Of a stretch of DNA of 64,000 nucleotides, positions 34,088-59,972 are shown piece by piece. The stretch covers positions 1-64,000 of IMG/VR virus record IMGVR_UViG_3300008108_000181; one strand, written 5' to 3'. Source of the DNA: a virus. The number at the start of each line of letters is the position of its first letter. Position 1 is the first letter of the stretch. The position numbers were made by a program, and so were the translations under genes. Under the pieces are notes generated by a model. That model was given only the letters and a program-made list of their open reading frames with translations. It searched no databases and was not told where the DNA came from.

Positions 34088-35806
34088 TTATATTATCTTT
34101 TTTCGAACTATATAATTGTGTAATACTAAAGTATCCATTTCACAATTCAAAAATGTTTTAACTGCAGTTTCTGGGTCTAACACCATAGTTTGATCTTTTA
34201 AGTTAAATGAAGTGTTGAGGACAATTGGATAACCATTATCTATTTCCAATTGATTTAACAATCTATACATTCGTGATTGTTGTCTATTATTCAATGTTTG
34301 AATTCTTGCAGAACCATCAATGTGAGTAATTGCTGGTAAATTCTTTCTATGTTCTTCTTTCACTTTCACTACTTGATTCATATATGGAACCAAATGTTTA
34401 TAATCAAAGTACTTTAATCGTTCTTCTTCTTTTATAATTGGTGCAAATGGTCTAAACCCTTCTCTTTTTTTAATTACACGATTTACTCGTGCTTTCATTT
34501 GTGGGTCTCTTGGATTAGCCAAAATAGAACGATTCCCAAGGGCTCGAGAACCAAATTCCATTCTCCCCTCGAACCAACCAATGACATTTCCATCAGTAAT
34601 TTCTCTACTGATGATTGGAATAATTTCTGAATGATTTTTATATTCATACCAAACTTCATTTTCGTGTTTATCTAATACTTCTTTTATTTTTTCATTTGTA
34701 TACGAAGGCCCCAAATAAGGATTTGTATTTACTACTCTATTTTTGTTATTTAATTGATTATACCAATAATAAAGAGCAGAACCAATAGCAGAACCAGCAT
34801 CAGATGGTGCAGGTGGAATCCACAATCCCTTGAATGGTGTCATATCGGTAATCTTCCCATTTGCAGTTCCATTGTATGCACACCCACCACTCAGACAAAC
34901 ATTATTAGCAGGTCTTAATGCAATTGCACGATTTAATAATCTAAAAAAATAATGTTCGTACTCGTGTTGTAATGTTGCAGCTAAATCTTTATGGTCTTGT
35001 GTAATTTCCTCATCGGGTAATCTATTAGGGAATCCAAACAACTCTCCCAATTTCTCGTTAAACATAGATTTATCATCCCAATCATAGGTAAAATAATCCA
35101 TATTGATTTTATATCCACCATCATCGGTAGATGAAATCAAATGAGAAAATTTAGATAAATATTTTTTGTAATCACCATACGGTGCAAGACCCATTACTTT
35201 GTATTCACCTTCATTTGGTTTGAATCCAAGAAATGCGGTAAATACTGAGTATAACATTCCTAAAGAATGTGGGAACTCTACACTTTGAAGTTTAATTATT
35301 CTATTCTCTTCACCATAAGCAATTACGGTAGTTTCCCACTCACCTACCCCATCTACCGAAACAATCATTGCTCTCTCGTAGGGTGATGTATAGAATGAAT
35401 ATGCTAAATGTGAGAGGTGGTGTTCGGTGTGAAACAATTCTGAATTAGGAAATAATTTCTTAATCTTTTTTTCTACCTTTTTGTATTCTTGTTTATTATT
35501 GTAGATAATTTTTTGTCTATTAATTTCATTAACGAACCCACCACGTTTTGTAGATTTTTCAATTCTATCAATTTTCAATTCGGGTAGTTCATAAAAAGTA
35601 ACTACATTAATATCGTTAGGAGTAATTCCTTCGTTTTCTAATAACCAAGTTATAGTATTAATTGGAAATGAAGAATCATGCTTTATACCAGTAAATCTTT
35701 CCTCTTCAACTGCACCTACAACCTCACCATTTTTAATGAGAGCAGCAGCAGAATCATGATAACCAGAACTTATTCCTAAAATATAAAAATTATTCACTTT
35801 CATCAA
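34088..35806 (-). CDS. Carbamoyltransferase (NodU/CmcH/TobZ family)
   Basis: YHDSAAAL...EEERF...KH, EHHLSH, DGVGE, EYKVMGLAPYG, LSGGCAYN, EFGSRALGNRSILA and LNTSFN. Confidence 0.93.
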   Translation of the reverse strand: MMKVNNFYILGISSGYHDSAAALIKNGEVVGAVEEERFTGIKHDSSFPINTITWLLENEGITPNDINVVTFYELPELKIDRIEKSTKRGGFVNEINRQKIIYNNKQEYKKVEKKIKKLFPNSELFHTEHHLSHLAYSFYTSPYERAMIVSVDGVGEWETTVIAYGEENRIIKLQSVEFPHSLGMLYSVFTAFLGFKPNEGEYKVMGLAPYGDYKKYLSKFSHLISSTDDGGYKINMDYFTYDWDDKSMFNEKLGELFGFPNRLPDEEITQDHKDLAATLQHEYEHYFFRLLNRAIALRPANNVCLSGGCAYNGTANGKITDMTPFKGLWIPPAPSDAGSAIGSALYYWYNQLNNKNRVVNTNPYLGPSYTNEKIKEVLDKHENEVWYEYKNHSEIIPIISREITDGNVIGWFEGRMEFGSRALGNRSILANPRDPQMKARVNRVIKKREGFRPFAPIIKEEERLKYFDYKHLVPYMNQVVKVKEEHRKNLPAITHIDGSARIQTLNNRQQSRMYRLLNQLEIDNGYPIVLNTSFNLKDQTMVLDPETAVKTFLNCEMDTLVLHNYIVRKKII

Positions 35807-47584: not shown

Positions 47585-47950
47585 TTAATAAGAGATTTTA
47601 AGAGTTCTACTCTTTCTTTCGTTCTTCTTATCAATTAATAAAACCAATAATCCATTTTCGAATTTAGCTTCTGATTTAGTACCATCGTAATCAGTACCGA
47701 CCGTAAGTTTCAAATCAATATCCTTTACAAACCGAGAAGTACCTTCTTCTTTTTTTGCAATGATATGAACGAATTCTTCGGTTACATCAACTTGGATATT
47801 TTTTGGTGAATGACCGAGTGTGTTGATGATTACTTGTTGTTTTCCACTTTCCAATACTTCAACTTCAAATTGAGAAGTTTTGTAATTGTAAGTTGGTTCT
47901 TTTGCCAATTCTTTAAATAGTTTGTCAAATGTGTCAAGTGTGTAGAACAT
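47585..47950 (-). CDS. Small heat shock protein (Hsp20/alpha-crystallin)
   Basis: G.....I.V.V....V.I.A and AKFENGLLVLLIDK...LKI. Confidence 0.8.
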   Translation of the reverse strand: MFYTLDTFDKLFKELAKEPTYNYKTSQFEVEVLESGKQQVIINTLGHSPKNIQVDVTEEFVHIIAKKEEGTSRFVKDIDLKLTVGTDYDGTKSEAKFENGLLVLLIDKKNERKSRTLKISY

Positions 47951-49108: not shown

Positions 49109-49594
49109 TTATAGTAATCGTTCCAAAATACTATCCCAAGTTGGAAATTCATTTACAGTGTTGGTTTCCCAATTAGTACCGAACTGAAGAAGAGTACCTC
49201 GAAACTCCCCAGCACCATTCTTGGTTCTATCATCGATTAGGTAATCACCCATCAACAAATCCTTTCGGTGAGTAATAAACATTTTCTTGTGGAATAGGTT
49301 ACCAAAGTAATCCTCAATCCAAAATCTCTTATCCATTCCTGCCATTGGGTTTCCCCAAGGTGCGGTAGTTGCGATAAACAATTCGTACTTACCACACTCT
49401 GCCAGTTTCTTCACCGCCTCGATAGCACCTTCCATAGGTGGAGCGTTTCGGAATAACCCTTGAATGTGGTCGGGATGTGTTTTGTATCGTTCTCTTAGAT
49501 GTGGATGAAGGGTGAAGAAGTTTTCTATTGCCTTTCCAAAATCAACAAGGACACCGTCCATGTCAATGTAGATGATTTGTTTTCTCTCGTTCAT
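49109..49594 (-). CDS. 5'(3')-deoxyribonucleotidase (NT5C, HAD superfamily)
   Basis: IYIDMDGVLVDF, K..WI..YF and GDYLIDDR. Confidence 0.9.
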   Translation of the reverse strand: MNERKQIIYIDMDGVLVDFGKAIENFFTLHPHLRERYKTHPDHIQGLFRNAPPMEGAIEAVKKLAECGKYELFIATTAPWGNPMAGMDKRFWIEDYFGNLFHKKMFITHRKDLLMGDYLIDDRTKNGAGEFRGTLLQFGTNWETNTVNEFPTWDSILERLL

Positions 49595-49678: not shown

Positions 49679-50830
49679 TTAAATCAATGCTTTTTTGTTA
49701 AAATCACATTGAAGTAATTTAAATAAATCTCTAATCTCATTGTTTTTAAAAAAGTTTAAATAATTGTGAACTATTACATCTTGCATTTCATTCTTTAATT
49801 CTTTCAATTCATCCAAATTTAATTCGGATATAGTTTCCATCACCTTTACTATTTTATTAAATCGTTTTTTTAAATCAGTTTCAGTATCATAACTCTCATC
49901 CCACCAATTACTAAATGTTTTATAACCCAATTCATGTAATTTATTTAAAGTAAAAGGATTTCCAAATACAATAAAAGGTTGGCATAGGTAAATGGGTTTG
50001 TATGTTTTTTCGGATATAAAAAGTGAATCATTATCATATAGAGTTTCAGTAACGATATTTAAAAAAGATTTTAAATGAGCATCTACATTTAATCTTGCAC
50101 CTCCACCTATTTTTTGATTATCCCAACGAGGGACATCATAATAATAGTTTTTATCAACACCTCGTAATGTTGTAATAGATTTATTTTTAAACTTTGAATT
50201 AGTAGTTAATTCATTAAACATTAATAATCTATTTTCTCTAGCTATACCGTTGAAACATAAAAAATGAAATTCAAAATTGGTATTCAAAAATTTAGTATAT
50301 TCAGTTTGATGTGAATTTACTTTTATTGAATCCAATTTAGATATTGATAGAAAGTTTATATGGTTACCAAAATAGTTGTAATTGATTATAGTAAAATTAT
50401 TATTTGAAAATTGAATTAGGTTTGAGGTAATTACAATAACATCATCCTTTGAAAAATTATATTTTTGACATAAGTCATTTATCCAATTCACACACGAAGT
50501 ATTGAAATATCCTTCAAGTAAATAAGCAAAAACAATTTTACATTTTTTGAGTTTAATTGATGCTATTAAATTTTCATCTAAATCAATAGTTTTATGATTG
50601 TCAAATAACTTATTATCAAATAGTATTATGGGATATATAAAATTTAAATTATTTTTAATAAAAAAATGAATACTACTTTCTTTAAAATTACCTAAAGTAT
50701 TATCTAATAAATTTGAAATACTTGTTTTGCCACTGATAATCCAATCAGGTTCGATATCATAGTTGTGTAAGTTTAAATAAGATGTATTATCATAACCAAC
50801 ATTTATTAATAAGTTTTTTAAATCACTCAT
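49679..50830 (-). CDS. Putative glycosyltransferase-like protein (GT10-like motif)
   Basis: FLCFNG..R.NR...SFLNIVTET...FISEKTYKPIYLCQPFIVFG...GYKTF..WWDESYD. Confidence 0.55.
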   Translation of the reverse strand: MSDLKNLLINVGYDNTSYLNLHNYDIEPDWIISGKTSISNLLDNTLGNFKESSIHFFIKNNLNFIYPIILFDNKLFDNHKTIDLDENLIASIKLKKCKIVFAYLLEGYFNTSCVNWINDLCQKYNFSKDDVIVITSNLIQFSNNNFTIINYNYFGNHINFLSISKLDSIKVNSHQTEYTKFLNTNFEFHFLCFNGIARENRLLMFNELTTNSKFKNKSITTLRGVDKNYYYDVPRWDNQKIGGGARLNVDAHLKSFLNIVTETLYDNDSLFISEKTYKPIYLCQPFIVFGNPFTLNKLHELGYKTFSNWWDESYDTETDLKKRFNKIVKVMETISELNLDELKELKNEMQDVIVHNYLNFFKNNEIRDLFKLLQCDFNKKALI

Positions 50831-51447
50831 ATCAAATCAGGTTCAAAGTACTTTTTATAAAAAATTTCAGATAATGATTTATGTGATTTAAATGAAAGAT
50901 GATAATCTACTATTTGTCCTTCAGTTGCATCTTTTATAGTTTCAAGACCTTTTAAATCAGTCTGAACATTCCATAAAATTACTTTTTCACATCCCTTTTG
51001 TATGAGGAGTTTTTTAATCCATTCAAATCTTTTTATCTGTCTATTCTTATATAAAATGTTATCTGCAAAGTAATACTGGAAATTTATGATGGTTTCAAAT
51101 TCATCATTCGTTAATCCATTTTCGGTTTTACTTTTTGAAAAATCGTGAACTATGGACTCAAAATGATTATTAATTGGTACATCAAATCGGTGGGCGTGTG
51201 TCATTCCAATAAACACATAATCATCTTTACTTATCTCTTTCCACGTATCAATTATAGTATCTATGATTGTATCGTTTGAACTTCCATTCTTTCCAAGATT
51301 TTTTAGTTCAACATTTAATTTATCACTTAACCATACTGGCCAAACCCCATCTCCTGATTTGTAATAACTTTCATAATACTCATCATTTGGATGACACCCA
51401 TGTCCTGCAGTATTACTATCACCAAATGTCCATAGTGTAGATTTCAT
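50827..51447 (-). CDS. SGNH/GDSL hydrolase-like protein
   Basis: FGDSNTAG, NLGKNGSSN and DYHLS. Confidence 0.65.
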   Translation of the reverse strand: MKSTLWTFGDSNTAGHGCHPNDEYYESYYKSGDGVWPVWLSDKLNVELKNLGKNGSSNDTIIDTIIDTWKEISKDDYVFIGMTHAHRFDVPINNHFESIVHDFSKSKTENGLTNDEFETIINFQYYFADNILYKNRQIKRFEWIKKLLIQKGCEKVILWNVQTDLKGLETIKDATEGQIVDYHLSFKSHKSLSEIFYKKYFEPDLI

Positions 51448-51884
51448 AATTTAGAAGTATAACCAATACTTTCAACTAACTCAAACACAACATTATTCCA
51501 ATCTTCTATTTCAACATGGATTGAATTATATTTTTCTAACATAACACCACTAACTTTTCTGTAAAACCAAGTTGGTGAATACTTTGGTCTTGGTATTTGT
51601 TTGGTGACATATAAGTTATAACCAAAACAAGTATCTGAAGTAAGTTCTTTAAACCAGACATATCCAATTGGTGTATTGTTTAATTTTAATAAAAATAAAT
51701 AATGTTTTGATTCTAATCTTAATTTGCAATCATCTATATCAAACATCCCATCCCACTTATATTCTGAATTAAATGAATCTATAAGTGATTGAATATCGGA
51801 AATATAATTTTCTATATCCACTACAAGATGAGTGGTTAGTTCTTCTTTTATAAAATTATCTTTATGTAAAATATATTTTCTCAT
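51444..51884 (-). CDS. Putative GNAT-fold protein
   Basis: PIGYVWF...YNLYV...V...N....L.ESIGY pattern. Confidence 0.45.
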   Translation of the reverse strand: MRKYILHKDNFIKEELTTHLVVDIENYISDIQSLIDSFNSEYKWDGMFDIDDCKLRLESKHYLFLLKLNNTPIGYVWFKELTSDTCFGYNLYVTKQIPRPKYSPTWFYRKVSGVMLEKYNSIHVEIEDWNNVVFELVESIGYTSKL

Positions 51885-52621
51885 CAGAATAATGTTTTTA
51901 CATTTTTTACTTTATCATAAGGTAAATAAATAGAATCATATTTTTCTTTAAATTCATCATTAAGTTTTAGTTTTGTATCAAAGTGTTGGCTAGTATTTAT
52001 ATTCATTAATTTAAAATCCATATTTAATTTATTTGATACCCACTCTTCTAATTTATACAACTCATTAAAATCAAACCATATTATATTAGGGTCATGGTTG
52101 TGCCACTTTGAATACGGAAATAATAAAATTTTTAACCAGTTTATACCATGTTGATTAACATTTAATTTATATTTTTTTATAAAAACTTGAACAATTACTT
52201 CTACACTTTCTGCTGATTGTAAGTCATATTTTTTATACCATAATAATTCATCAATAGTAAGATTTGATAATTTATTAAATGTATCTAAATGATTATATCT
52301 ATGAAACATTTTTAATATATGTTTCCATAAGGATATAAATCTTTCATACTTATTTCTCTTAACAGATATAACATCATAATGATATCCAAATTTTTCTTTT
52401 AAAATACGTATTTGCTCATGACCATGTACAAAGTCTATATCAAACTCTTGAAAATTTATTTGATTTATATTATCATATTGAGTGTGAATTAATTGATTTT
52501 CTATATTAAACTCGGTATGATAGTGTTTAATTTCTAAATTTTGTTTTACACATGATGCCATAAATGCAGTAGATGCACATCTTGGTAATGATAAATAAAT
52601 AAATTTATTTTCTACTAACAT
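51884..52621 (-). CDS. Sulfotransferase-like protein
   Basis: FIYLSLPRCASTAF (PSB-loop variant) and SVKRNKYERFISLW. Confidence 0.6.
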   Translation of the reverse strand: MLVENKFIYLSLPRCASTAFMASCVKQNLEIKHYHTEFNIENQLIHTQYDNINQINFQEFDIDFVHGHEQIRILKEKFGYHYDVISVKRNKYERFISLWKHILKMFHRYNHLDTFNKLSNLTIDELLWYKKYDLQSAESVEVIVQVFIKKYKLNVNQHGINWLKILLFPYSKWHNHDPNIIWFDFNELYKLEEWVSNKLNMDFKLMNINTSQHFDTKLKLNDEFKEKYDSIYLPYDKVKNVKTLF

Positions 52622-53269
52622 TTAAATTATTGATTTTAAGTCTGTTTGTATTATACTAACATTACCAGAAACTGAAATTCTCTCAACTCCTTGTGTGTAA
52701 AATGGTGATACATAATGAATCAAATATGATGGAAATATAATTACCTCTCCCTTTTTAGGAGTGTGTTGAATCAAAGCTGATGGGGATAACAAATTATTTA
52801 CCAATTGAGTGTAAGGGGTTACATCGAGTTGTGTATTATTTCCATAAAAAAAAGATATTGTACCTGGTCGATATGATGCTTCACTAAATGGTTGTTCATT
52901 TATTATTTCTTGTGGGAAATCTAAATAAATTACAAATGATATTTCTCCATTATGATGTCTGTGTGGTGGATTATGTTCACCTGATTTTTGTCTATTAATC
53001 CATAAACTATTTAATGTTGTTTTATAGTTCGAATGGATAATACCTCTTTCAATTCGAATCCATTCGATATATTCTTTAATTTTTATTAATATATCTGATT
53101 CAAATTTCTTTTTTAATAATTCAGAATACGTTTTTTCGTTTTCAATATGACCAGCTAGGCTTGATTTAGCATCATCTCTTTGTTGTACACCGTCTAATAA
53201 CAAATCTGCCCTTAATTTTTCAGAGATAGTACTAATTAATACAGGTGGTCCAAATTTTAATTCTTTCAT
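52622..53269 (-). CDS. 2OG-Fe(II) oxygenase-like protein
   Basis: WINRQ..GEHNPPHRH...ISFVIYL...IIFPSYLIHYV...RISVSGN. Confidence 0.8.
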   Translation of the reverse strand: MKELKFGPPVLISTISEKLRADLLLDGVQQRDDAKSSLAGHIENEKTYSELLKKKFESDILIKIKEYIEWIRIERGIIHSNYKTTLNSLWINRQKSGEHNPPHRHHNGEISFVIYLDFPQEIINEQPFSEASYRPGTISFFYGNNTQLDVTPYTQLVNNLLSPSALIQHTPKKGEVIIFPSYLIHYVSPFYTQGVERISVSGNVSIIQTDLKSII

Positions 53270-53298
53270 ATCAACTTATATGTTTTTTTTTTAGAAAA

Positions 53299-54042
53299 TT
53301 ATATTAGTGTTTTATTATTTTTTTGAATATCATAATAATCATAAATGTCATTATATCTTTTTATAAACTCATCATTTAATTTTAATTCACATTCAAAATG
53401 CTGACTTCCATTTGATTTTTCCATTTTAAATGGTTTATTGGTTTTATTAGATACCCAATCCTCCAATTCTGTAAAATTTCCAAAATCAAAGTATTTTATT
53501 TTTGGATTATTATTATGCCAATACGATGTTGGTCTAAATGCAATTTGTAACATATTGATAAAATAATCATCAACGTATTTTTCAATACCATTTCTTTTAC
53601 AAAACTCAATAAATACTAATTTTTCAGATTCATGTGAAATTAAATCGAAAGTTTTAAAAAATAATATATCATCTAAATTTAATTTTTTAAGTATATTTAC
53701 CAGTTCAATTGGATACCGATACCGTAATCGTTCCATTTCTACCATATCAATTGTGTGCTTCCATACCGAAATAAATCTTTCATATCTATTTCGTTTAATT
53801 GATATTATATCATATTTGTTTCCAAATTTATCAATTAACTCACTTGATTTTTCGTGAACATGAAATATATGGTCAGCTAATTCTTCATTATTCATAGATA
53901 AATCTATAAAATGTGCCGATTCATCATACCGTTTTTGATTAAAATGATTTATTTCAAATCCATGTCGAATACATGATATATAAAAAGAAAAAGATGCACA
54001 TCTTGGTAAAGACACAAATAAAAATTTATTTTCTACTAACAT
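53299..54042 (-). CDS. Sulfotransferase-like protein (paralog of 51884..52621)
   Basis: MLVENKFLFVSLPRCASFSF...IKRNRYERFISVWKH, clearly similar to 51884..52621 along its length. Confidence 0.6.
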   Translation of the reverse strand: MLVENKFLFVSLPRCASFSFYISCIRHGFEINHFNQKRYDESAHFIDLSMNNEELADHIFHVHEKSSELIDKFGNKYDIISIKRNRYERFISVWKHTIDMVEMERLRYRYPIELVNILKKLNLDDILFFKTFDLISHESEKLVFIEFCKRNGIEKYVDDYFINMLQIAFRPTSYWHNNNPKIKYFDFGNFTELEDWVSNKTNKPFKMEKSNGSQHFECELKLNDEFIKRYNDIYDYYDIQKNNKTLI

Positions 54043-54687
54043 TTATATCAATGATTTTTGTTTTTTTATATATTCAAATCCAGTATTTCCAGCAAATACT
54101 ATTCTATCTATGTTAGATTTTGGTGCATTATTAGCAGCATGGGGAAGTGATGCCTCCATTATTATTAAATCATCTTCTTCTGGTCTAATCCAATAATCTT
54201 CTCCAGTTTTTCCTTTTATATATAAAACACTATCATCTCCTTCTACAATATCAGGCATTTGTATATAATATACCCATGTGTAATGTGGAAAAAAACCTTT
54301 TTGTTTTTTTTTAATTTCAATATGAGTATGGTATCTAGTATCATCTTTTGTTATGTGATACACATCATTATCTCCTTTTACAAATTCGCGTTGTACTGGT
54401 TTTTTTGAACGAGTTACATTTATCCACGCATCTGCATTAAATTTATTGTATATATTATAATTTTTAATGTATAGTGATTTACACATCTTCCAACTTTTAT
54501 TCATAATTTCATCAAATATAGCATCCATACCATCATAGTATGGATATGCATCGACCTCTTTAAATGGACTAAAAAAATCTTCCATTTCCATTTTATAAAA
54601 CCATTTTAATAAATGTTGTTTATTATCTAACATATTTAATTTTGTTTTCCAAATATAGGTAGAATTATCAAAATATATCTTTTCCAT
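54043..54687 (-). CDS. 2OG-Fe(II) oxygenase-like protein
   Basis: WINV...YHTH...YTWVYYIQMP...P.EDDLIIM...LPH......RIVFAGN. Confidence 0.65.
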   Translation of the reverse strand: MEKIYFDNSTYIWKTKLNMLDNKQHLLKWFYKMEMEDFFSPFKEVDAYPYYDGMDAIFDEIMNKSWKMCKSLYIKNYNIYNKFNADAWINVTRSKKPVQREFVKGDNDVYHITKDDTRYHTHIEIKKKQKGFFPHYTWVYYIQMPDIVEGDDSVLYIKGKTGEDYWIRPEEDDLIIMEASLPHAANNAPKSNIDRIVFAGNTGFEYIKKQKSLI

Positions 54688-54688
54688 A

Positions 54689-55969
54689 TTATATAATATT
54701 TTTGTATATAGTATTTCTTTCTATAATAAAGTTATTATGAATTATACTTTTTAAAAATGAATTTTCATTGTTAATAAAACTCATTAATTTACTATGTGTG
54801 GTATTACTCCAATCAATACATAGCTGTCTATTAGTTTCATAATTTTTCATAAATTCTTCTACGAATAAAACAAATTTTTCAGGATTACCGTTTACCCTTT
54901 TTATTTCATTATAAAATGGATGTGAATGTGTATCTAATATTTCAGATACTACATCTAATGGATATTGATGAGTAGATATAAAAGGAATGTTAGCCAGTAA
55001 GAATCCATATGTTTTTTCAGATAAATAGTTTGATGTAAAATCACCTTCTTTCCAATCCCAAGTTTCGGATAGTATATGCATTTTAGACATAGGAAGAATT
55101 CTCATCAAATAATCCAAATAATGCTCTATGTTTTCAATCCAAGATATATCATCAAAATCATCTCCTTTATTAATATTGTAGTTGATATTTTTTTCTAATT
55201 GTTTAGAATACATAGTAAATTCTTTATTAATACAATTATCTACTCTCGAAAGATATATTCTTTCATCATTTAGTTTTGCTAATCCATTTATGATACTAGT
55301 TCTATTTCTCTTATGATACCTCATAGAAAAACATAAATCATACGGTTGATTTAATTTACTAAATATGTTTTTAAATTCATAATACCAACGAATTGATAGG
55401 AGTTCATTCCATTGATGTATTGTATTTGTCAAACAAAAAAAATGATTTGGATATTTGGTTTTCACGAACTCGTTAAAGATTACATTATCTGTTATGATAA
55501 AATGATTTTTTAATCTATCTATCTGAACCTCCAAATCCATCACATTTGGATAGTTAATCCCATCATATTTAATGATAGATTTTTCAGTTCGTAATAAAAA
55601 AATAAACCAATTACTTTTATTTTCCAAAGTATCGGCTATCCATTTCATTATTGGAATATCATTAATACCAAATTCTGCTCCCCATTTTCCACGATGAGAA
55701 GTATCACCTTCTTTACGATTTACACAATCAATAATTTTTAACTTATCATCTTGGTTTATTTGTTCTAAACAAGTTAAAAAATCTAATATATGATATCCAT
55801 CGGTATTATCATTTATAAAAGGATTGAATACTAATTCCAAATCTTGCTTTTCATATCTGCAAAAAATAGAACCAATATTATTAGTTAGTTCATATCTCCT
55901 ATTAGTTGTTTTATGAAACAACTTATAAAAAAGAGAAATGGAATAAAAATGATGAATGTAAAATTTCAT
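54689..55969 (-). CDS. Putative glycosyltransferase-like protein (GT10-like motif)
   Basis: HILSETW...YLSEKTYGFLLANIPFIS. Confidence 0.45.
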   Translation of the reverse strand: MKFYIHHFYSISLFYKLFHKTTNRRYELTNNIGSIFCRYEKQDLELVFNPFINDNTDGYHILDFLTCLEQINQDDKLKIIDCVNRKEGDTSHRGKWGAEFGINDIPIMKWIADTLENKSNWFIFLLRTEKSIIKYDGINYPNVMDLEVQIDRLKNHFIITDNVIFNEFVKTKYPNHFFCLTNTIHQWNELLSIRWYYEFKNIFSKLNQPYDLCFSMRYHKRNRTSIINGLAKLNDERIYLSRVDNCINKEFTMYSKQLEKNINYNINKGDDFDDISWIENIEHYLDYLMRILPMSKMHILSETWDWKEGDFTSNYLSEKTYGFLLANIPFISTHQYPLDVVSEILDTHSHPFYNEIKRVNGNPEKFVLFVEEFMKNYETNRQLCIDWSNTTHSKLMSFINNENSFLKSIIHNNFIIERNTIYKNII

Positions 55970-55993
55970 TAAAAATAATAACCAATTTTAATA

Positions 55994-56377
55994 CTAAATT
56001 ATTTTATTTTTTCTGATATCCCAGTATGTTTGCCAATATTTAGTTCCATAATCATGACACAATTCATCATCTGGTTCAATTTCCTTTAATGAATAAAATT
56101 CAATAAATTTATCATCTTTTACTTTCCAATTGATATTAGGAGAATCTGAATGATTATAAATAGCACCATACCCTAATGGAAAGATTCGTTTGGTGGTGTG
56201 TTCATCAATTTGAAACAAATAATCTAGTAATGGATTGATATTAGAATTATAAATTGGTAAAAAATAACAAGTTTCAACTATCTCACCTATATTAATTTTT
56301 TCCAAAGTAAATACACCAAAACCCTTTACTTCGTCTATATACCTTATTTCTAATTTAATTTTATTAAAAATTTTCAT
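55994..56377 (-). CDS. SET-domain methyltransferase
   Basis: KGFGVF....I..GE, YNHSDSPN and EI.PDDELCHDYG. Confidence 0.85.
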   Translation of the reverse strand: MKIFNKIKLEIRYIDEVKGFGVFTLEKINIGEIVETCYFLPIYNSNINPLLDYLFQIDEHTTKRIFPLGYGAIYNHSDSPNINWKVKDDKFIEFYSLKEIEPDDELCHDYGTKYWQTYWDIRKNKII

Positions 56378-56405
56378 TTATTAAAAAAATAAGCACAACC
56401 CTTAT

Positions 56406-56687
56406 CTATATTAAACTATTTTTTTGTTTTCGTGTATTTCCAAAGACATCGGAATCTTCAACATCTAACCATTTATGAAGAGGACACGCATCGTATCTTG
56501 GTGAGAATATTTTTTTACTAATAGGACACCCACACTCATCACATTTCAGATACCCACCAATCCCAGTAACCTTCTTATCACATCCGTTGCATATCTCTAA
56601 TCGTCCTTCTGCTAATTTTAATTGAGATTCGGTGGGATTGTTAGCTATAATCCAAGACTCTGCTATCTCCTTTACTTTATCAAACAT
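56406..56687 (-). CDS. Small Cys-rich metal-binding protein (DUF6171-like)
   Basis: RLEICNGC...CDECGC...CPLHKW. Confidence 0.65.
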   Translation of the reverse strand: MFDKVKEIAESWIIANNPTESQLKLAEGRLEICNGCDKKVTGIGGYLKCDECGCPISKKIFSPRYDACPLHKWLDVEDSDVFGNTRKQKNSLI

Positions 56688-56705: not shown

Positions 56706-56855
56706 TTATAAATGGTTTTCCTTTACGGCATTTACAAATAAATTAATTTTATCTGAAATAGCCGATTTTACAGCAGAGTTTGTATTTATTCTCTGTCTTT
56801 TAAATAATTCAGTATAATCTGAATATGTTATATTTTTGTTAATTTCGGTTGCCAT
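56706..56855 (-). CDS. Small hypothetical protein (49 aa)
   Basis: MATEINKNITYSDYTELFKRQRINTNSAVKSAISDKINLFVNAVKENHL starts 2 nt after the stop of the 645-aa gene. Confidence 0.55.
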   Translation of the reverse strand: MATEINKNITYSDYTELFKRQRINTNSAVKSAISDKINLFVNAVKENHL

Positions 56856-56856
56856 A

Positions 56857-58794
56857 TTAATTTAGTTTTTTAAATTCTACATCTATTTTATTGTAATCAA
56901 CTACATATAATCCATTTTCATTTAAAGATAATGAATCTTCATAATTAGTTCCAATCAACTCTTGAGCAATAACTCCTTGATATAATCCTTCTTCGTTTTT
57001 GTAATTAAATTGATAAACATTTAACCCAAAATCAGATACACCAATTAAAGTCAAATTTTCTTTATATTGAATATCTGATTTTTGGTCATTACAATAAGCA
57101 GTATTTGATATATACCCACTATGCGGTAAGTAGGTAAATACCGCGGCATTTTTTCCATATACGACTCTTGAACATCCTCCGTAGTAATTCGACCCCCAAT
57201 AACCCGGACATGCAGTATTGTATGCATTATCAATGCAAGTATACCAAGCAACACAAAATGCTCCTCCGGCACCTCCGTGTGTATTTACAGCAGTCCAATA
57301 TCTACAATCATAACCAAAGTTATGTGTAACTAACCCATATCTACTTTGATTTTCAGTTTCTTCCAAAGTAAGGAATAAATCCAATTCTTCAAAATCCAAA
57401 GTGTATCCAGTAAATTTATCAAATCTAAAATTTACATTGGTTATAGTAGTAATAATTAATTGATTAGTAGTGGTATCGAAGGTAAGAATTTCATCACCGA
57501 CTTTTAACTCTGAATATGTTTGAAATTTAACATAATCACCATCTTTTACCATTATTTCGGCATGGACAACATCACTAAATGTAGAATTAGTATCAGTTTC
57601 AAATGTAACTAATACTCCATAAAAATCAGTAGTTGATTTGTTTTCTAAAAATGATGATGATACTTGATAATCTGTAATTATTGAATCATATGAAGAGGAC
57701 CACGCTACCAAACTAGGTGTATCACTTTCATCAGGTAATTCTGCAAATAAAATAGATTTTACTTCATCACCTATTTGTAAATTGGGTGCCAATTCAATAC
57801 TACCATCTGGTAATAGGACTTTAGTATTTTGGGTAGCACTTAACTTTATTGCAACTTGATTAGCTGTTGTATAAAATTTTTGAAGATATCTCATTCTATC
57901 CCAAGGTTGAACTTGATTGGTATCATCAAAATCTGCTGAAGATAGAAGTGGTAAAATTGTTGTTTTTTCTATAACTTGTAAGTTAATAATATCCAAATTC
58001 GAACCATATAATAAATCTATGCTTCTATATGTATTTAATCTACCATCAAATAAATCGGTATCATTGAAAATATATTCTTGGATATATTCATCAACTTCCA
58101 AATTAGATTTTAAACTATTTAATTCTTCAAGTGTACTAATCTTATATAATTTTGGATAGATTTTATTATCAGAAGGAGTTACTCTTTTTTTAATACAATA
58201 GTTAGGATGGTTTCCATTATCTCTTAATGTAGTACCAATACTATCTATACCAAATTCATTATCATCAATATAACATTTTGGAATAGAATTATTATCTGCA
58301 TCATACATTAACTTTAAAAATCCCCAATTATCTCTAGCGTAATTATCATCAATTAATGCAGTAGTATCAAATGATAATCGTATGATTAGTTTATCTTCTG
58401 TATCTTCTACAAAAGGAATGGTAGTAGAAGTGGCATCTGTGCTTATTGTTACTAATTCTATATTACTTCCAGATAAAAATGATTTTAAATACTGATTAAA
58501 AGTAAAATTAAAAGGTATGTTTGGTAATGAGTTAGCAGTACGATTTGAATTTATACTACGAAGTTCATTAAGTTCATAATTAAGTGTGTTAGCTGTTTCC
58601 GCGGACCTATTGGTTTCATTTGAAATTAATACAACTTCTGTAAAATTATTTGAAATTACAAAATTTTCAAATGATGCTGAATCAAAATTAAGAGACCATT
58701 GGGTATCTAATTGAATATTTGTATTTGTTTCTAATGCTTTGAAGGTACCATCGGTATCTTTCATAAAATCAGTACCTATAATAACTGCTCTCAT
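56857..58794 (-). CDS. Multidomain self-processing protein: ATP-grasp-like domain, Hint domain, Cys-rich peptide, peptidase S74 domain
   Basis: GTDFMKDTDGTFKALETNTN and YCIKK...EYIQEYI (ATP-grasp-like). SATQNTKVLLPDG...LQIGDEV...ELKVGDEI...LVTHN (Hint). SDIQYKENL...VYQFNY...YQGVIAQEL...VDYNKI (S74). Confidence 0.75.
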   Translation of the reverse strand: MRAVIIGTDFMKDTDGTFKALETNTNIQLDTQWSLNFDSASFENFVISNNFTEVVLISNETNRSAETANTLNYELNELRSINSNRTANSLPNIPFNFTFNQYLKSFLSGSNIELVTISTDATSTTIPFVEDTEDKLIIRLSFDTTALIDDNYARDNWGFLKLMYDADNNSIPKCYIDDNEFGIDSIGTTLRDNGNHPNYCIKKRVTPSDNKIYPKLYKISTLEELNSLKSNLEVDEYIQEYIFNDTDLFDGRLNTYRSIDLLYGSNLDIINLQVIEKTTILPLLSSADFDDTNQVQPWDRMRYLQKFYTTANQVAIKLSATQNTKVLLPDGSIELAPNLQIGDEVKSILFAELPDESDTPSLVAWSSSYDSIITDYQVSSSFLENKSTTDFYGVLVTFETDTNSTFSDVVHAEIMVKDGDYVKFQTYSELKVGDEILTFDTTTNQLIITTITNVNFRFDKFTGYTLDFEELDLFLTLEETENQSRYGLVTHNFGYDCRYWTAVNTHGGAGGAFCVAWYTCIDNAYNTACPGYWGSNYYGGCSRVVYGKNAAVFTYLPHSGYISNTAYCNDQKSDIQYKENLTLIGVSDFGLNVYQFNYKNEEGLYQGVIAQELIGTNYEDSLSLNENGLYVVDYNKIDVEFKKLN

Positions 58795-59609: not shown

Positions 59610-59972
59610 TTAAATAACATTTTTTTGTTTTTTGGAATCATCTAATTTTTTTCTTGATGATTTGTTTTTAAAATCTGATTTGTACGTTTGTATTAATGCA
59701 CATTTTTCGTATATTTCTTTTTTCACAAACCAATCATTACAATAATCCAAGACGATTAAGTAATCTTTTTGTTCAATCATTACTACTGAAGGAGCATTGA
59801 CATGAACTACAAAACCCACATTTTCTTTCCCATCTAAAATTGCATTGTGTATATTTTGTGCAACTTGCCAGAGAACATCATCTCCATTCTTATTCAAAAA
59901 GTTTTGAACGAATGGGTTGGTTGGAACTAAATATTTTTCCCACCCCACGGTTGTAAAAGCTCTTGTTCTCAT
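59610..59972 (-). CDS. Hypothetical protein
   Basis: 120-aa ORF with a UVR-like E.YEKCA.I segment. Confidence 0.6.
   Translation of the reverse strand: MRTRAFTTVGWEKYLVPTNPFVQNFLNKNGDDVLWQVAQNIHNAILDGKENVGFVVHVNAPSVVMIEQKDYLIVLDYCNDWFVKKEIYEKCALIQTYKSDFKNKSSRKKLDDSKKQKNVI

Follow-up and report, generated by a model that had tools for sequence, protein, structure and literature searches.

Why do enzymes of unrelated fold, encoded side by side in one viral genome, end in the same few residues? The question is raised by a block of ten consecutive genes on the minus strand, located at 49679-56687 of the virus record IMGVR_UViG_3300008108_000181. Positions 1-64,000 of this record are termed the window here; the contig as a whole comprises 81,196 bases of AT-rich phage DNA and carries nearly all of its genes on the minus strand. 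Nine of the ten products end in [LI][IF], a tail that we call the tag, and the block lies next to the gene of an untagged, putative precursor protein of 645 amino acids (aa; 56857-58794). A first-pass annotation had quoted the nine endings as FNKKALI, YFEPDLI, KNVKTLF, DLKSII, KNNKTLI, KKQKSLI, IYKNII, RKNKII and KQKNSLI, and all of them are present as written in the list of open reading frames (ORFs). The similar ends which it had named outside the block, KKQKNVI (59610-59972) and RKKII on a carbamoyltransferase (34088-35803), were likewise found in the sequence.

For the determination of the enrichment, a greedy, non-overlapping set of 115 ATG-started ORFs of at least 45 aa was established on the minus strand of the whole 81,196-base contig. 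The [LI][IF] ending was present on 9/10 cluster products and on five of the 105 remaining ORFs (Fisher 2.7e-9); with Lys required among the four preceding residues the counts were 8/10 and 4/105 (3.5e-8). Tag patterns of this type were set after inspection of the data, which makes the p-values optimistic, and the effect is still very large. An equal frequency of the motif throughout the genome, which the annotation had considered, is ruled out by these counts. Within the window the AT content is highest in the island at 50001-56000 (GC 0.245-0.249 vs 0.27-0.34 elsewhere), and composition was controlled within the ten cluster proteins themselves: [LI][IF] occupies 55 of their 2152 positions (2.6%), which gives a binomial p of 4.5e-14 for nine of ten endings.

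The tag is missing from the tightly coupled structural genes of this contig; for structural genes of the window the annotation had said so. The GNAT-like protein that it had singled out as the deviating member of the block does end in YTSKL, and its family is tagged in just 2/17 distinct sequences. Its description of the products as mostly unrelated holds insofar as several distinct families are represented. Their number is about seven or eight and not nine, because the 245-aa and 247-aa proteins are paralogues and the 215-aa and 214-aa proteins are both 2-oxoglutarate (2OG)-Fe(II) oxygenases.

Families, selection and gain of the tag

Related loci were collected from IMG/VR. A scan with the 247-aa enzyme as query gave 19 loci and a scan with the 645-aa protein gave 253 relatives, from which 80 loci were kept, 77 of them new. 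The 1664 distinct ORF products of all collected loci were clustered into families, whereby a product was counted as tagged if it ended in two hydrophobic residues. The families are sharply two-sided, and the tag is present in the related phage clusters: 15 families with at least five distinct sequences each are at least 85% tagged. They comprise three 2OG oxygenase families (153/155, 54/54 and 11/11 distinct sequences tagged), a sulfotransferase-like family (79/81), a second P-loop family (54/55), a family of Cys-rich proteins of ~95 aa (67/71), a Trp halogenase (25/25; Pfam E 1.5e-89), a radical SAM family (20/22), a SET family (12/12), a class I methyltransferase (9/9), DUF6734 (5/5) and families without a name of about 426, 383, 231 and 218 aa. 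Within these 15 families the two hydrophobic residues form the exact C-terminal end in 87-100% of the distinct sequences.

Twenty-three proteins of tagged families were scanned against Pfam, 10 of them at E up to 0.1 and 13 at E up to 0.01. The tag-bearing proteins are of unrelated fold and include 2OG oxygenases, the Trp halogenase, the radical SAM enzyme, the SET protein, the class I methyltransferase as well as sulfotransferase-like and GDSL-like proteins. Assignment to the sulfotransferases is weak (Pfam E 6e-4), and a Foldseek search with a model of the 247-aa enzyme gave no significant match, the weak ones being mostly sulfotransferases. On the other side stand families that are practically free of the tag, namely the ATP-grasp/Hint protein, which is the putative precursor (1/73), APS kinase (1/20), DUF2061 (0/28), Hsp20 (1/27) and the GNAT-like proteins; carbamoyltransferases are mostly untagged (3/20 tagged). 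APS kinase helps to make the sulfate donor 3'-phosphoadenosine-5'-phosphosulfate (PAPS). Its gene (L003:5293-5727, Pfam E 3.8e-17) and that of the small DUF2061 membrane protein are often found just outside the tagged block, and APS kinase has a different conserved ending, K-L-x-[LI].

The family-weighted consensus of the tag is K (60%) or N (18%) at -4, K/T/S/N at -3, L (65%) or I (25%) at -2 and I (69%) or L (20%) at -1, with Lys enriched from -4 back to -7. Its occurrence depends on the distance from the precursor gene. Gene ranks were counted in 73 loci with distinct precursor proteins, which had been found via this gene and contain it by construction. Next to it the tagged fraction was 64/69 at rank +1, 63/68 at rank +2 and 51/68 at rank -1, and far from it 2/16 at rank +15 and 3/17 at rank -15. 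The locus set seeded independently with the 247-aa enzyme contained the precursor gene in 18 of 20 cases, and the other two loci are cut by contig ends where it should lie. One relative is complete (288,673 bases, terminal repeats, CheckV completeness 100%). It carries the strict tag pattern on 14 of its 370 ORFs, nine of them among the 23 ORFs at 38-55 kb vs five among the 347 elsewhere (Fisher 4e-9), and one of these outliers is again a carbamoyltransferase.

The tagged system is essentially viral. A search of 185,579 bacterial and archaeal species genomes for the ATP-grasp/Hint protein gave one match, on a 3.7-kb contig (L100) of a Pelagibacterales metagenome-assembled genome. This contig may be a piece of phage DNA placed in the wrong bin, or else a clue to the host. 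Among 50,697 GenBank phage records no match was obtained either by blastn of the cluster or by tblastn of the 247-aa, 498-aa and 645-aa proteins.

The tag is kept over large evolutionary distances. For the 247-aa protein 182 homologues were found in a collection of 5.8 billion proteins. A terminal pair of hydrophobic residues, mostly in the form KTLI, is present in 118 of the 120 listed, at identities as low as 44%; the remaining two are fragments truncated to 168 and 181 aa. Codon usage at the tag was then set against the usage in the gene bodies, for which the window and the 19 related viral loci collected first supplied 129 distinct tagged genes. Synonymous codons were equal for Leu at -2 (TTA 66% vs 67%, p 0.16), Thr at -3 (p 0.13) and Ser at -3 (p 0.38). 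The last codon alone is shifted to A in third position (ATA 69% vs 47% in gene bodies, p 2e-4), which fits ATGA overlaps or the context of the stop codon. Spacing between the genes is tight, with junctions of the ATGA and TAATG type. Tagged genes are represented in each class of junction, including 102 of 398 distinct proteins with a downstream gap of >60 nt, and some of them are directly followed by a terminator-like hairpin. Since codon usage at the tag is that of the gene bodies and the tag is found in all junction classes, selection acts on the residues and not on the DNA.

Comparison with untagged homologues revealed that at least three families received the tag as an extension, and that several enzyme families gained it independently of one another. 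The carbamoyltransferases usually end in YK, YKK or YKN; the window copy is extended by II (VRKKII), and two relatives (L026 and L031) are separately extended by IL (HKIL). Among the closest homologues of the PF13759 oxygenase (52622-53269), 51/53 are tagged. Twenty-six more distant ones stop right after the final SGN strand, with two hydrophobic residues at the end of 2/26, and the tagged forms extend roughly 8-12 residues beyond this strand. Among the cluster representatives nearest to the SET protein 21/40 end in two hydrophobic residues, usually after Lys or Arg, vs 12 of the next 110. Homologues of the halogenase family were found in 85 phage records, with alignments that end before the tail. 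In cultured phages the picture is a different one: 0/25 genes examined in the AT-rich HTVC008M end in [LI][IF], one 2OG gene ending in YKIV, and in P-SSM2 this applies to 1/36, a gene annotated for tail-fibre assembly. The halogenase and 2OG genes of both phages are without the tag, as are all 21 genes examined in the dioxygenase/halogenase array of Syn9.

An AlphaFold2 model of the 247-aa enzyme, built from 53 aligned sequences, reached a mean predicted local distance difference test (pLDDT) of 92 and a predicted template modelling score of 0.88. A helix at 224-238 is followed by coil, and the final block 241-247 (KNNKTLI), the one tail modelled, is coil with a mean pLDDT of 54. In diverse families the last two positions carry ~3 bits of information, and positions -5 to -16 mostly ~1 bit. 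The pattern is that of a conserved short motif on a variable linker, predicted to be disordered in the one family modelled.

A possible docking tag and its rivals

The tagged enzymes are of the kinds that modify peptide side chains, and neighbours that are not expected to act on a peptide, such as APS kinase, are untagged. Considered jointly, this distribution by enzyme role, a position strictly at the C-terminus, an origin by addition and the disorder of the modelled tail point to a recognition tag that would be read by one shared partner. We favour the reading, at a probability of about one half, that the tail is a docking tag with a free C-terminus, which would recruit the tailoring enzymes to a common pathway partner. 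A common C-terminal signal for docking or targeting, with a scaffold, a compartment or a protease as its destination, had been proposed in the annotation. All sequence-comparison tests agree with a shared recognition signal; docking or targeting, i.e., that the tail binds anything and what its partner is, we infer from them.

In mechanistic terms the tail would be a short linear motif composed of a basic/polar linker, K/N, K/T/S/N, L/I and I/L-COOH, read as a free C-terminus. It would mark enzymes that act on one macromolecular substrate and bring these otherwise unrelated enzymes to a common partner. The substrate would be the hypervariable Cys-rich peptide that is presumably made as the C-terminal part of the ATP-grasp/Hint protein. 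Thereby the precursor would carry the receptor and the enzymes the peptide, the reverse of the usual leader-peptide logic of peptides synthesized ribosomally and then modified post-translationally (RiPPs).

The 645-aa precursor of the window (56857-58794, minus strand) consists of a permuted ATP-grasp part, a Hint domain, a Cys-rich segment and an S74-like end. A 495-aa relative was modelled with 73 sequences (mean pLDDT 86). With Foldseek, the C-terminal half of this model matched the Hint domains of Hedgehog, intein and BIL proteins (E 2e-8) and the N-terminal half matched ATP-grasp proteins, namely Escherichia coli YjfC (2.3e-5) and human glutathione synthetase (5.2e-5). The putative ATP-grasp catalytic residues E21, N23, R112, D116, K173 and R228 (numbering of the first aligned sequence) are invariant in the 73 sequences. 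The folded ATP-grasp and Hint part comprises ~460 residues; the Hint domain ends in His-Asn and is followed by a hypervariable Cys/Trp/Tyr-rich stretch of ~25-60 residues, which is disordered in the model. The window copy has a longer Cys-rich segment and then an end that matches PHROG virion-protein families (residues 573-640) and is called S74-like on PHROG matches only. In the CW-type clade the core itself ends in K-hydrophobic-COOH in 27/33 distinct sequences (PPKL, FEKA), a loose echo of the enzyme tails.

The precursor becomes the candidate reader because it is the only untagged protein in every tagged cluster not cut by a contig end, and because the ATP-grasp class includes enzymes that act on peptide carboxylates. 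Glutathione synthetase, for example, acts on the C-terminal carboxylate of a short peptide. Among the conceivable partners the precursor's own ATP-grasp/Hint part would be the most likely, a tentative choice that takes up more than half of the probability given to docking. It is possible in this case that the tail represents a universal plug, with which enzymes of any fold would dock on an ATP-grasp/Hint leader protein fused to the Cys-rich core, via the C-terminal-carboxylate pocket of glutathione-synthetase-type ligases.

Several observations weigh against a docking tag. The information content of the motif is low, with two hydrophobic residues and one Lys. Some enzymes of the block are untagged (GNAT-like, 2/17 tagged; GDSL-like, 39/52 tagged), and tagged carbamoyltransferases lie 14-15 kb away from the cluster. 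The 161-aa 5'-nucleotidase-like protein beside the cluster (49109-49594) ends in ILERLL, and its relatives, including those of L001, L002, L012 and L013, in ILNKLL (5/5 distinct sequences); this NKLL/ERLL ending may be a tag, a helix end or chance. Within a genome, tag variants of different families agree to a modest degree only: 1109 of 2005 pairs are concordant vs 1051.5 (standard deviation 19.7) after shuffling, a value reached by 4/1000 shuffles and inflated by the relatedness of the loci. Concerted switching of tag variants within genomes was rejected on these data as a weak signal at most, the concordance being confounded by relatedness. Moreover, a reader provided by the host would explain most of the same facts. 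No phage-encoded TPR or PDZ reader was found; PF13180 (PDZ_2) gave 0 matches in three records, two of them at least 93% complete, a search that did not cover host PDZ proteins. The tails also differ from class I PDZ ligands, as T and S together make up just 45% at the third position from the end, where K reaches 28% and N 14% in the family-weighted count.

In the main rival reading, a host AAA+ machine, for instance ClpX, would recognize the tail as a degron or as a signal for remodelling, and the enzymes would be cleared or unfolded at a set time of infection. Tails like FNKKALI, VRKKII and RKNKII consist of a basic run followed by non-polar C-terminal residues and resemble the C-motif-2 degron of the phage Mu protein MuA, which is printed as CILEQNRRKKAI in the methods of PMC12723719 and ends in RRKKAI. 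Both are found on phage proteins, and in both an apparently unstructured basic run precedes a small or non-polar C-terminal end, a similarity that is one of composition. The phage tag differs in strictly keeping two hydrophobic residues and in being specific for one pathway. The predicted disorder of the one modelled tail would suit a degron equally, and a near-complete relative of 310 kb (L101, G001:176944-180471) encodes a ClpP-family protease (E 3.7e-57). On the other hand, the tag is confined to enzymes around one precursor gene and is missing from APS kinase, Hsp20, the GNAT-like protein and the rest of the genome, and the enzyme families gained it only in lineages with this cluster. A degron offers no obvious reason for such a pathway-specific pattern, and we consider it rather unlikely. 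Phage ClpP as the universal partner was rejected, since it is encoded in one of three records and is absent from the complete 288.7-kb genome.

Alternatively, the tail could be a weak localisation signal, in which a polybasic stretch and two hydrophobic residues would keep the enzymes at the inner membrane or elsewhere in the cell and not in one protein pocket. The enrichment of Lys at -4 to -7 in front of the hydrophobic pair and the small DUF2061 membrane protein as a frequent neighbour are in line with this explanation. Nevertheless, the sequences of the tagged families end exactly at the pair with nothing after it, at the high rate given above, which points to recognition of a free carboxylate, and as a matter of general reasoning a charged carboxylate beside the pair disfavours membrane insertion. 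Membrane-targeting helices are, moreover, longer than these tails. We regard this reading as improbable.

Still less probable is that the tails are themselves substrates, the terminal carboxylate of each enzyme being activated by the ATP-grasp ligase and joined to an amine or extended. RimK and tubulin-tyrosine ligase do act on protein C-termini. The invariance of the putative catalytic residues, YjfC and glutathione synthetase as the nearest solved ATP-grasp folds and the strictly terminal hydrophobic residue of every tail would agree with such a reaction, but a covalent joining of each enzyme would have no evident use for a multi-enzyme pathway, and the ligase could equally act on the core peptide, given its K-hydrophobic-COOH end in the CW-type clade.

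Finally, the idea that the ending is a by-product of constraints on DNA or translation finds some support in the AT-richness and tight packing of the cluster and in the A bias of the last codon, but we regard it as highly improbable: AT-rich stop/start overlaps, which the annotation had brought up, initiation context of the next gene and cassette recombination sites were rejected on codon usage at -2 and -3, junction classes and tail DNA, and plain AT or composition bias on the internal dipeptide frequency, the untagged coupled structural genes and the AT-rich controls HTVC008M, P-SSM2 and Syn9.

Genes of the block and tagged genes elsewhere in the window

All genes described here lie on the minus strand. 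The lowest coordinates of the block are occupied by a 383-aa protein (49679-50830) with the tail FNKKALI, its tag codons at 49682-49693, whose family is tagged in 9/10 distinct sequences. It is followed by a GDSL/SGNH-hydrolase-like protein of 206 aa (50827-51447; weak Pfam match, E 0.003), which ends in YFEPDLI with no Lys nearby. The 146-aa GNAT-like protein (51444-51884; weak Pfam match, E 0.027) belongs to a family that is consistently untagged inside the block. The two sulfotransferase-like paralogues, which share 44% identity, have 245 aa (51884-52621, tail KNVKTLF) and 247 aa (53299-54042, tail KNNKTLI), and between them lies the PF13759 2OG-Fe(II) oxygenase of 215 aa (52622-53269; Pfam E 5e-16, tail DLKSII). 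A second 2OG-Fe(II) oxygenase-like protein of 214 aa (54043-54687; weak Pfam match, tail KKQKSLI) represents the family with 54/54 tagged sequences. Next is a 426-aa protein (54689-55969, tail IYKNII), tagged in 19/19 distinct sequences of its family. Neither this protein nor the 383-aa, 245-aa and 247-aa proteins had a match in Pfam.

The SET-domain protein of 127 aa (55994-56377; Pfam E 2.8e-12) ends in RKNKII. Methylation of the Lys of the tag by SET proteins was considered and set aside, as SET genes are present in some loci only (12 distinct sequences) and the tag is universal. The last member is the Cys-rich protein of 93 aa (56406-56687, tail KQKNSLI), which always adjoins the precursor gene; a 49-aa ORF (56706-56855) lies between the two in the window.

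Outside the block, the 120-aa protein upstream of the cluster (59610-59972), to which no function was assigned, is tagged in 5/6 family members of the first locus set. The NodU-like carbamoyltransferase of 571 aa (34088-35803; PHROG E 1.6e-114) ends in IVRKKII and is located 14 kb from the cluster, and a second copy beyond the window (contig positions 65322-67097) ends in SKKII. The phage Hsp20 near the cluster (47585-47950) ends in LKISY, and its relatives in IKVG and IKIG. This is a motif of its own, of the I/V-K-I/V type; the hydrophobic residues of such I-x-I-type Hsp20 tails alternate, whereas those of the enzyme tails are adjacent. As a candidate reader of the tag Hsp20 was considered and set aside; it is also common in cyanophages in which the tag is missing.

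Known systems and implications

Very short C-terminal tags that are common to unrelated clients and read by one receptor are known. The peroxisomal targeting signal type 1 (PTS1), -SKL, is read by Pex5 and has the consensus [SAC]-[KRH]-[LM]-COOH. The tags described here do not match this consensus, and an SKL end is present only on the untagged GNAT-like protein. Clients of the targeting complex of cytosolic iron-sulfur cluster assembly (CIA) are recognized by a tripeptide [LIM]-[DES]-[WF]-COO- at the free C-terminus (PMC10245660). The likeness of the phage tag to both is that proteins of unrelated fold share 3-4 residues at their extreme C-terminus, which in the phage would likewise address them to one machinery; like these it is apparently portable, as it was gained by extension. 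It is unlike them in its sequence, K-x-hydrophobic-hydrophobic, and in its setting in a bacteriophage biosynthetic cluster.

Megasynthases of the nonribosomal peptide synthetase and polyketide synthase type carry docking domains or short linear motifs at the ends of their subunits (reviewed in PMC9113145). They are similar in that short terminal elements with portable contacts of moderate affinity assemble the enzymes of one pathway. In these systems a one-to-one pairing of successive subunits sets the order, whereas in the phages the same tail occurs on 10-15 free-standing enzymes, which implies one shared reader and no order. RiPP pathways use a leader element on the precursor and a reader domain, the RiPP recognition element (RRE), on the enzymes. 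There as well, a shared element for recognition guides unrelated tailoring enzymes to one ribosomal precursor, but in the phage reading the polarity would be reversed, with ~460 folded residues of ATP-grasp and Hint on the precursor. The Pfam scan of the 23 tagged-family proteins revealed no RRE or PqqD-type domain, although divergent RREs could be missed by it.

The closest known gene arrangements are the tandem dioxygenase/Trp-halogenase arrays of cyanophages, including Syn9, for which a modification of peptides was predicted by Iyer et al. 2010 (PMC2938197). Both combine several unrelated 2OG oxygenases, halogenases, sulfotransferases and ATP-grasp enzymes. They differ in the lack of [LI][IF] ends in Syn9 (0/21 genes) and in the lack of any match to the ATP-grasp/Hint precursor in the 50,697 phage records. 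A full-text literature search, beyond whose reach lay the gene-neighbourhood supplement of PMC2938197, yielded no description of a C-terminal tail common to phage enzymes of this kind. Within the limits of this search, new are the tag itself, its setting in phage peptide tailoring and the reversed leader logic that it implies.

If the tail is a docking tag, few of the portable recruitment signals known from biosynthetic pathways would be shorter, and engineered pathways might use it as a minimal tag to steer foreign enzymes to a peptide substrate of choice. It further provides a simple sequence rule by which members of the pathway can be found anywhere in these genomes, as exemplified by the distant tagged carbamoyltransferases. 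For the phages themselves, a docking function would explain how a hypervariable Cys-rich peptide came to be surrounded by large and fast-changing banks of peptide-modifying enzymes, among them hydroxylases, a halogenase, sulfotransferase-like proteins, methyltransferases and a radical SAM enzyme. Should the universal plug exist, these phages could swap modifying enzymes by adding two to four residues to a C-terminus.

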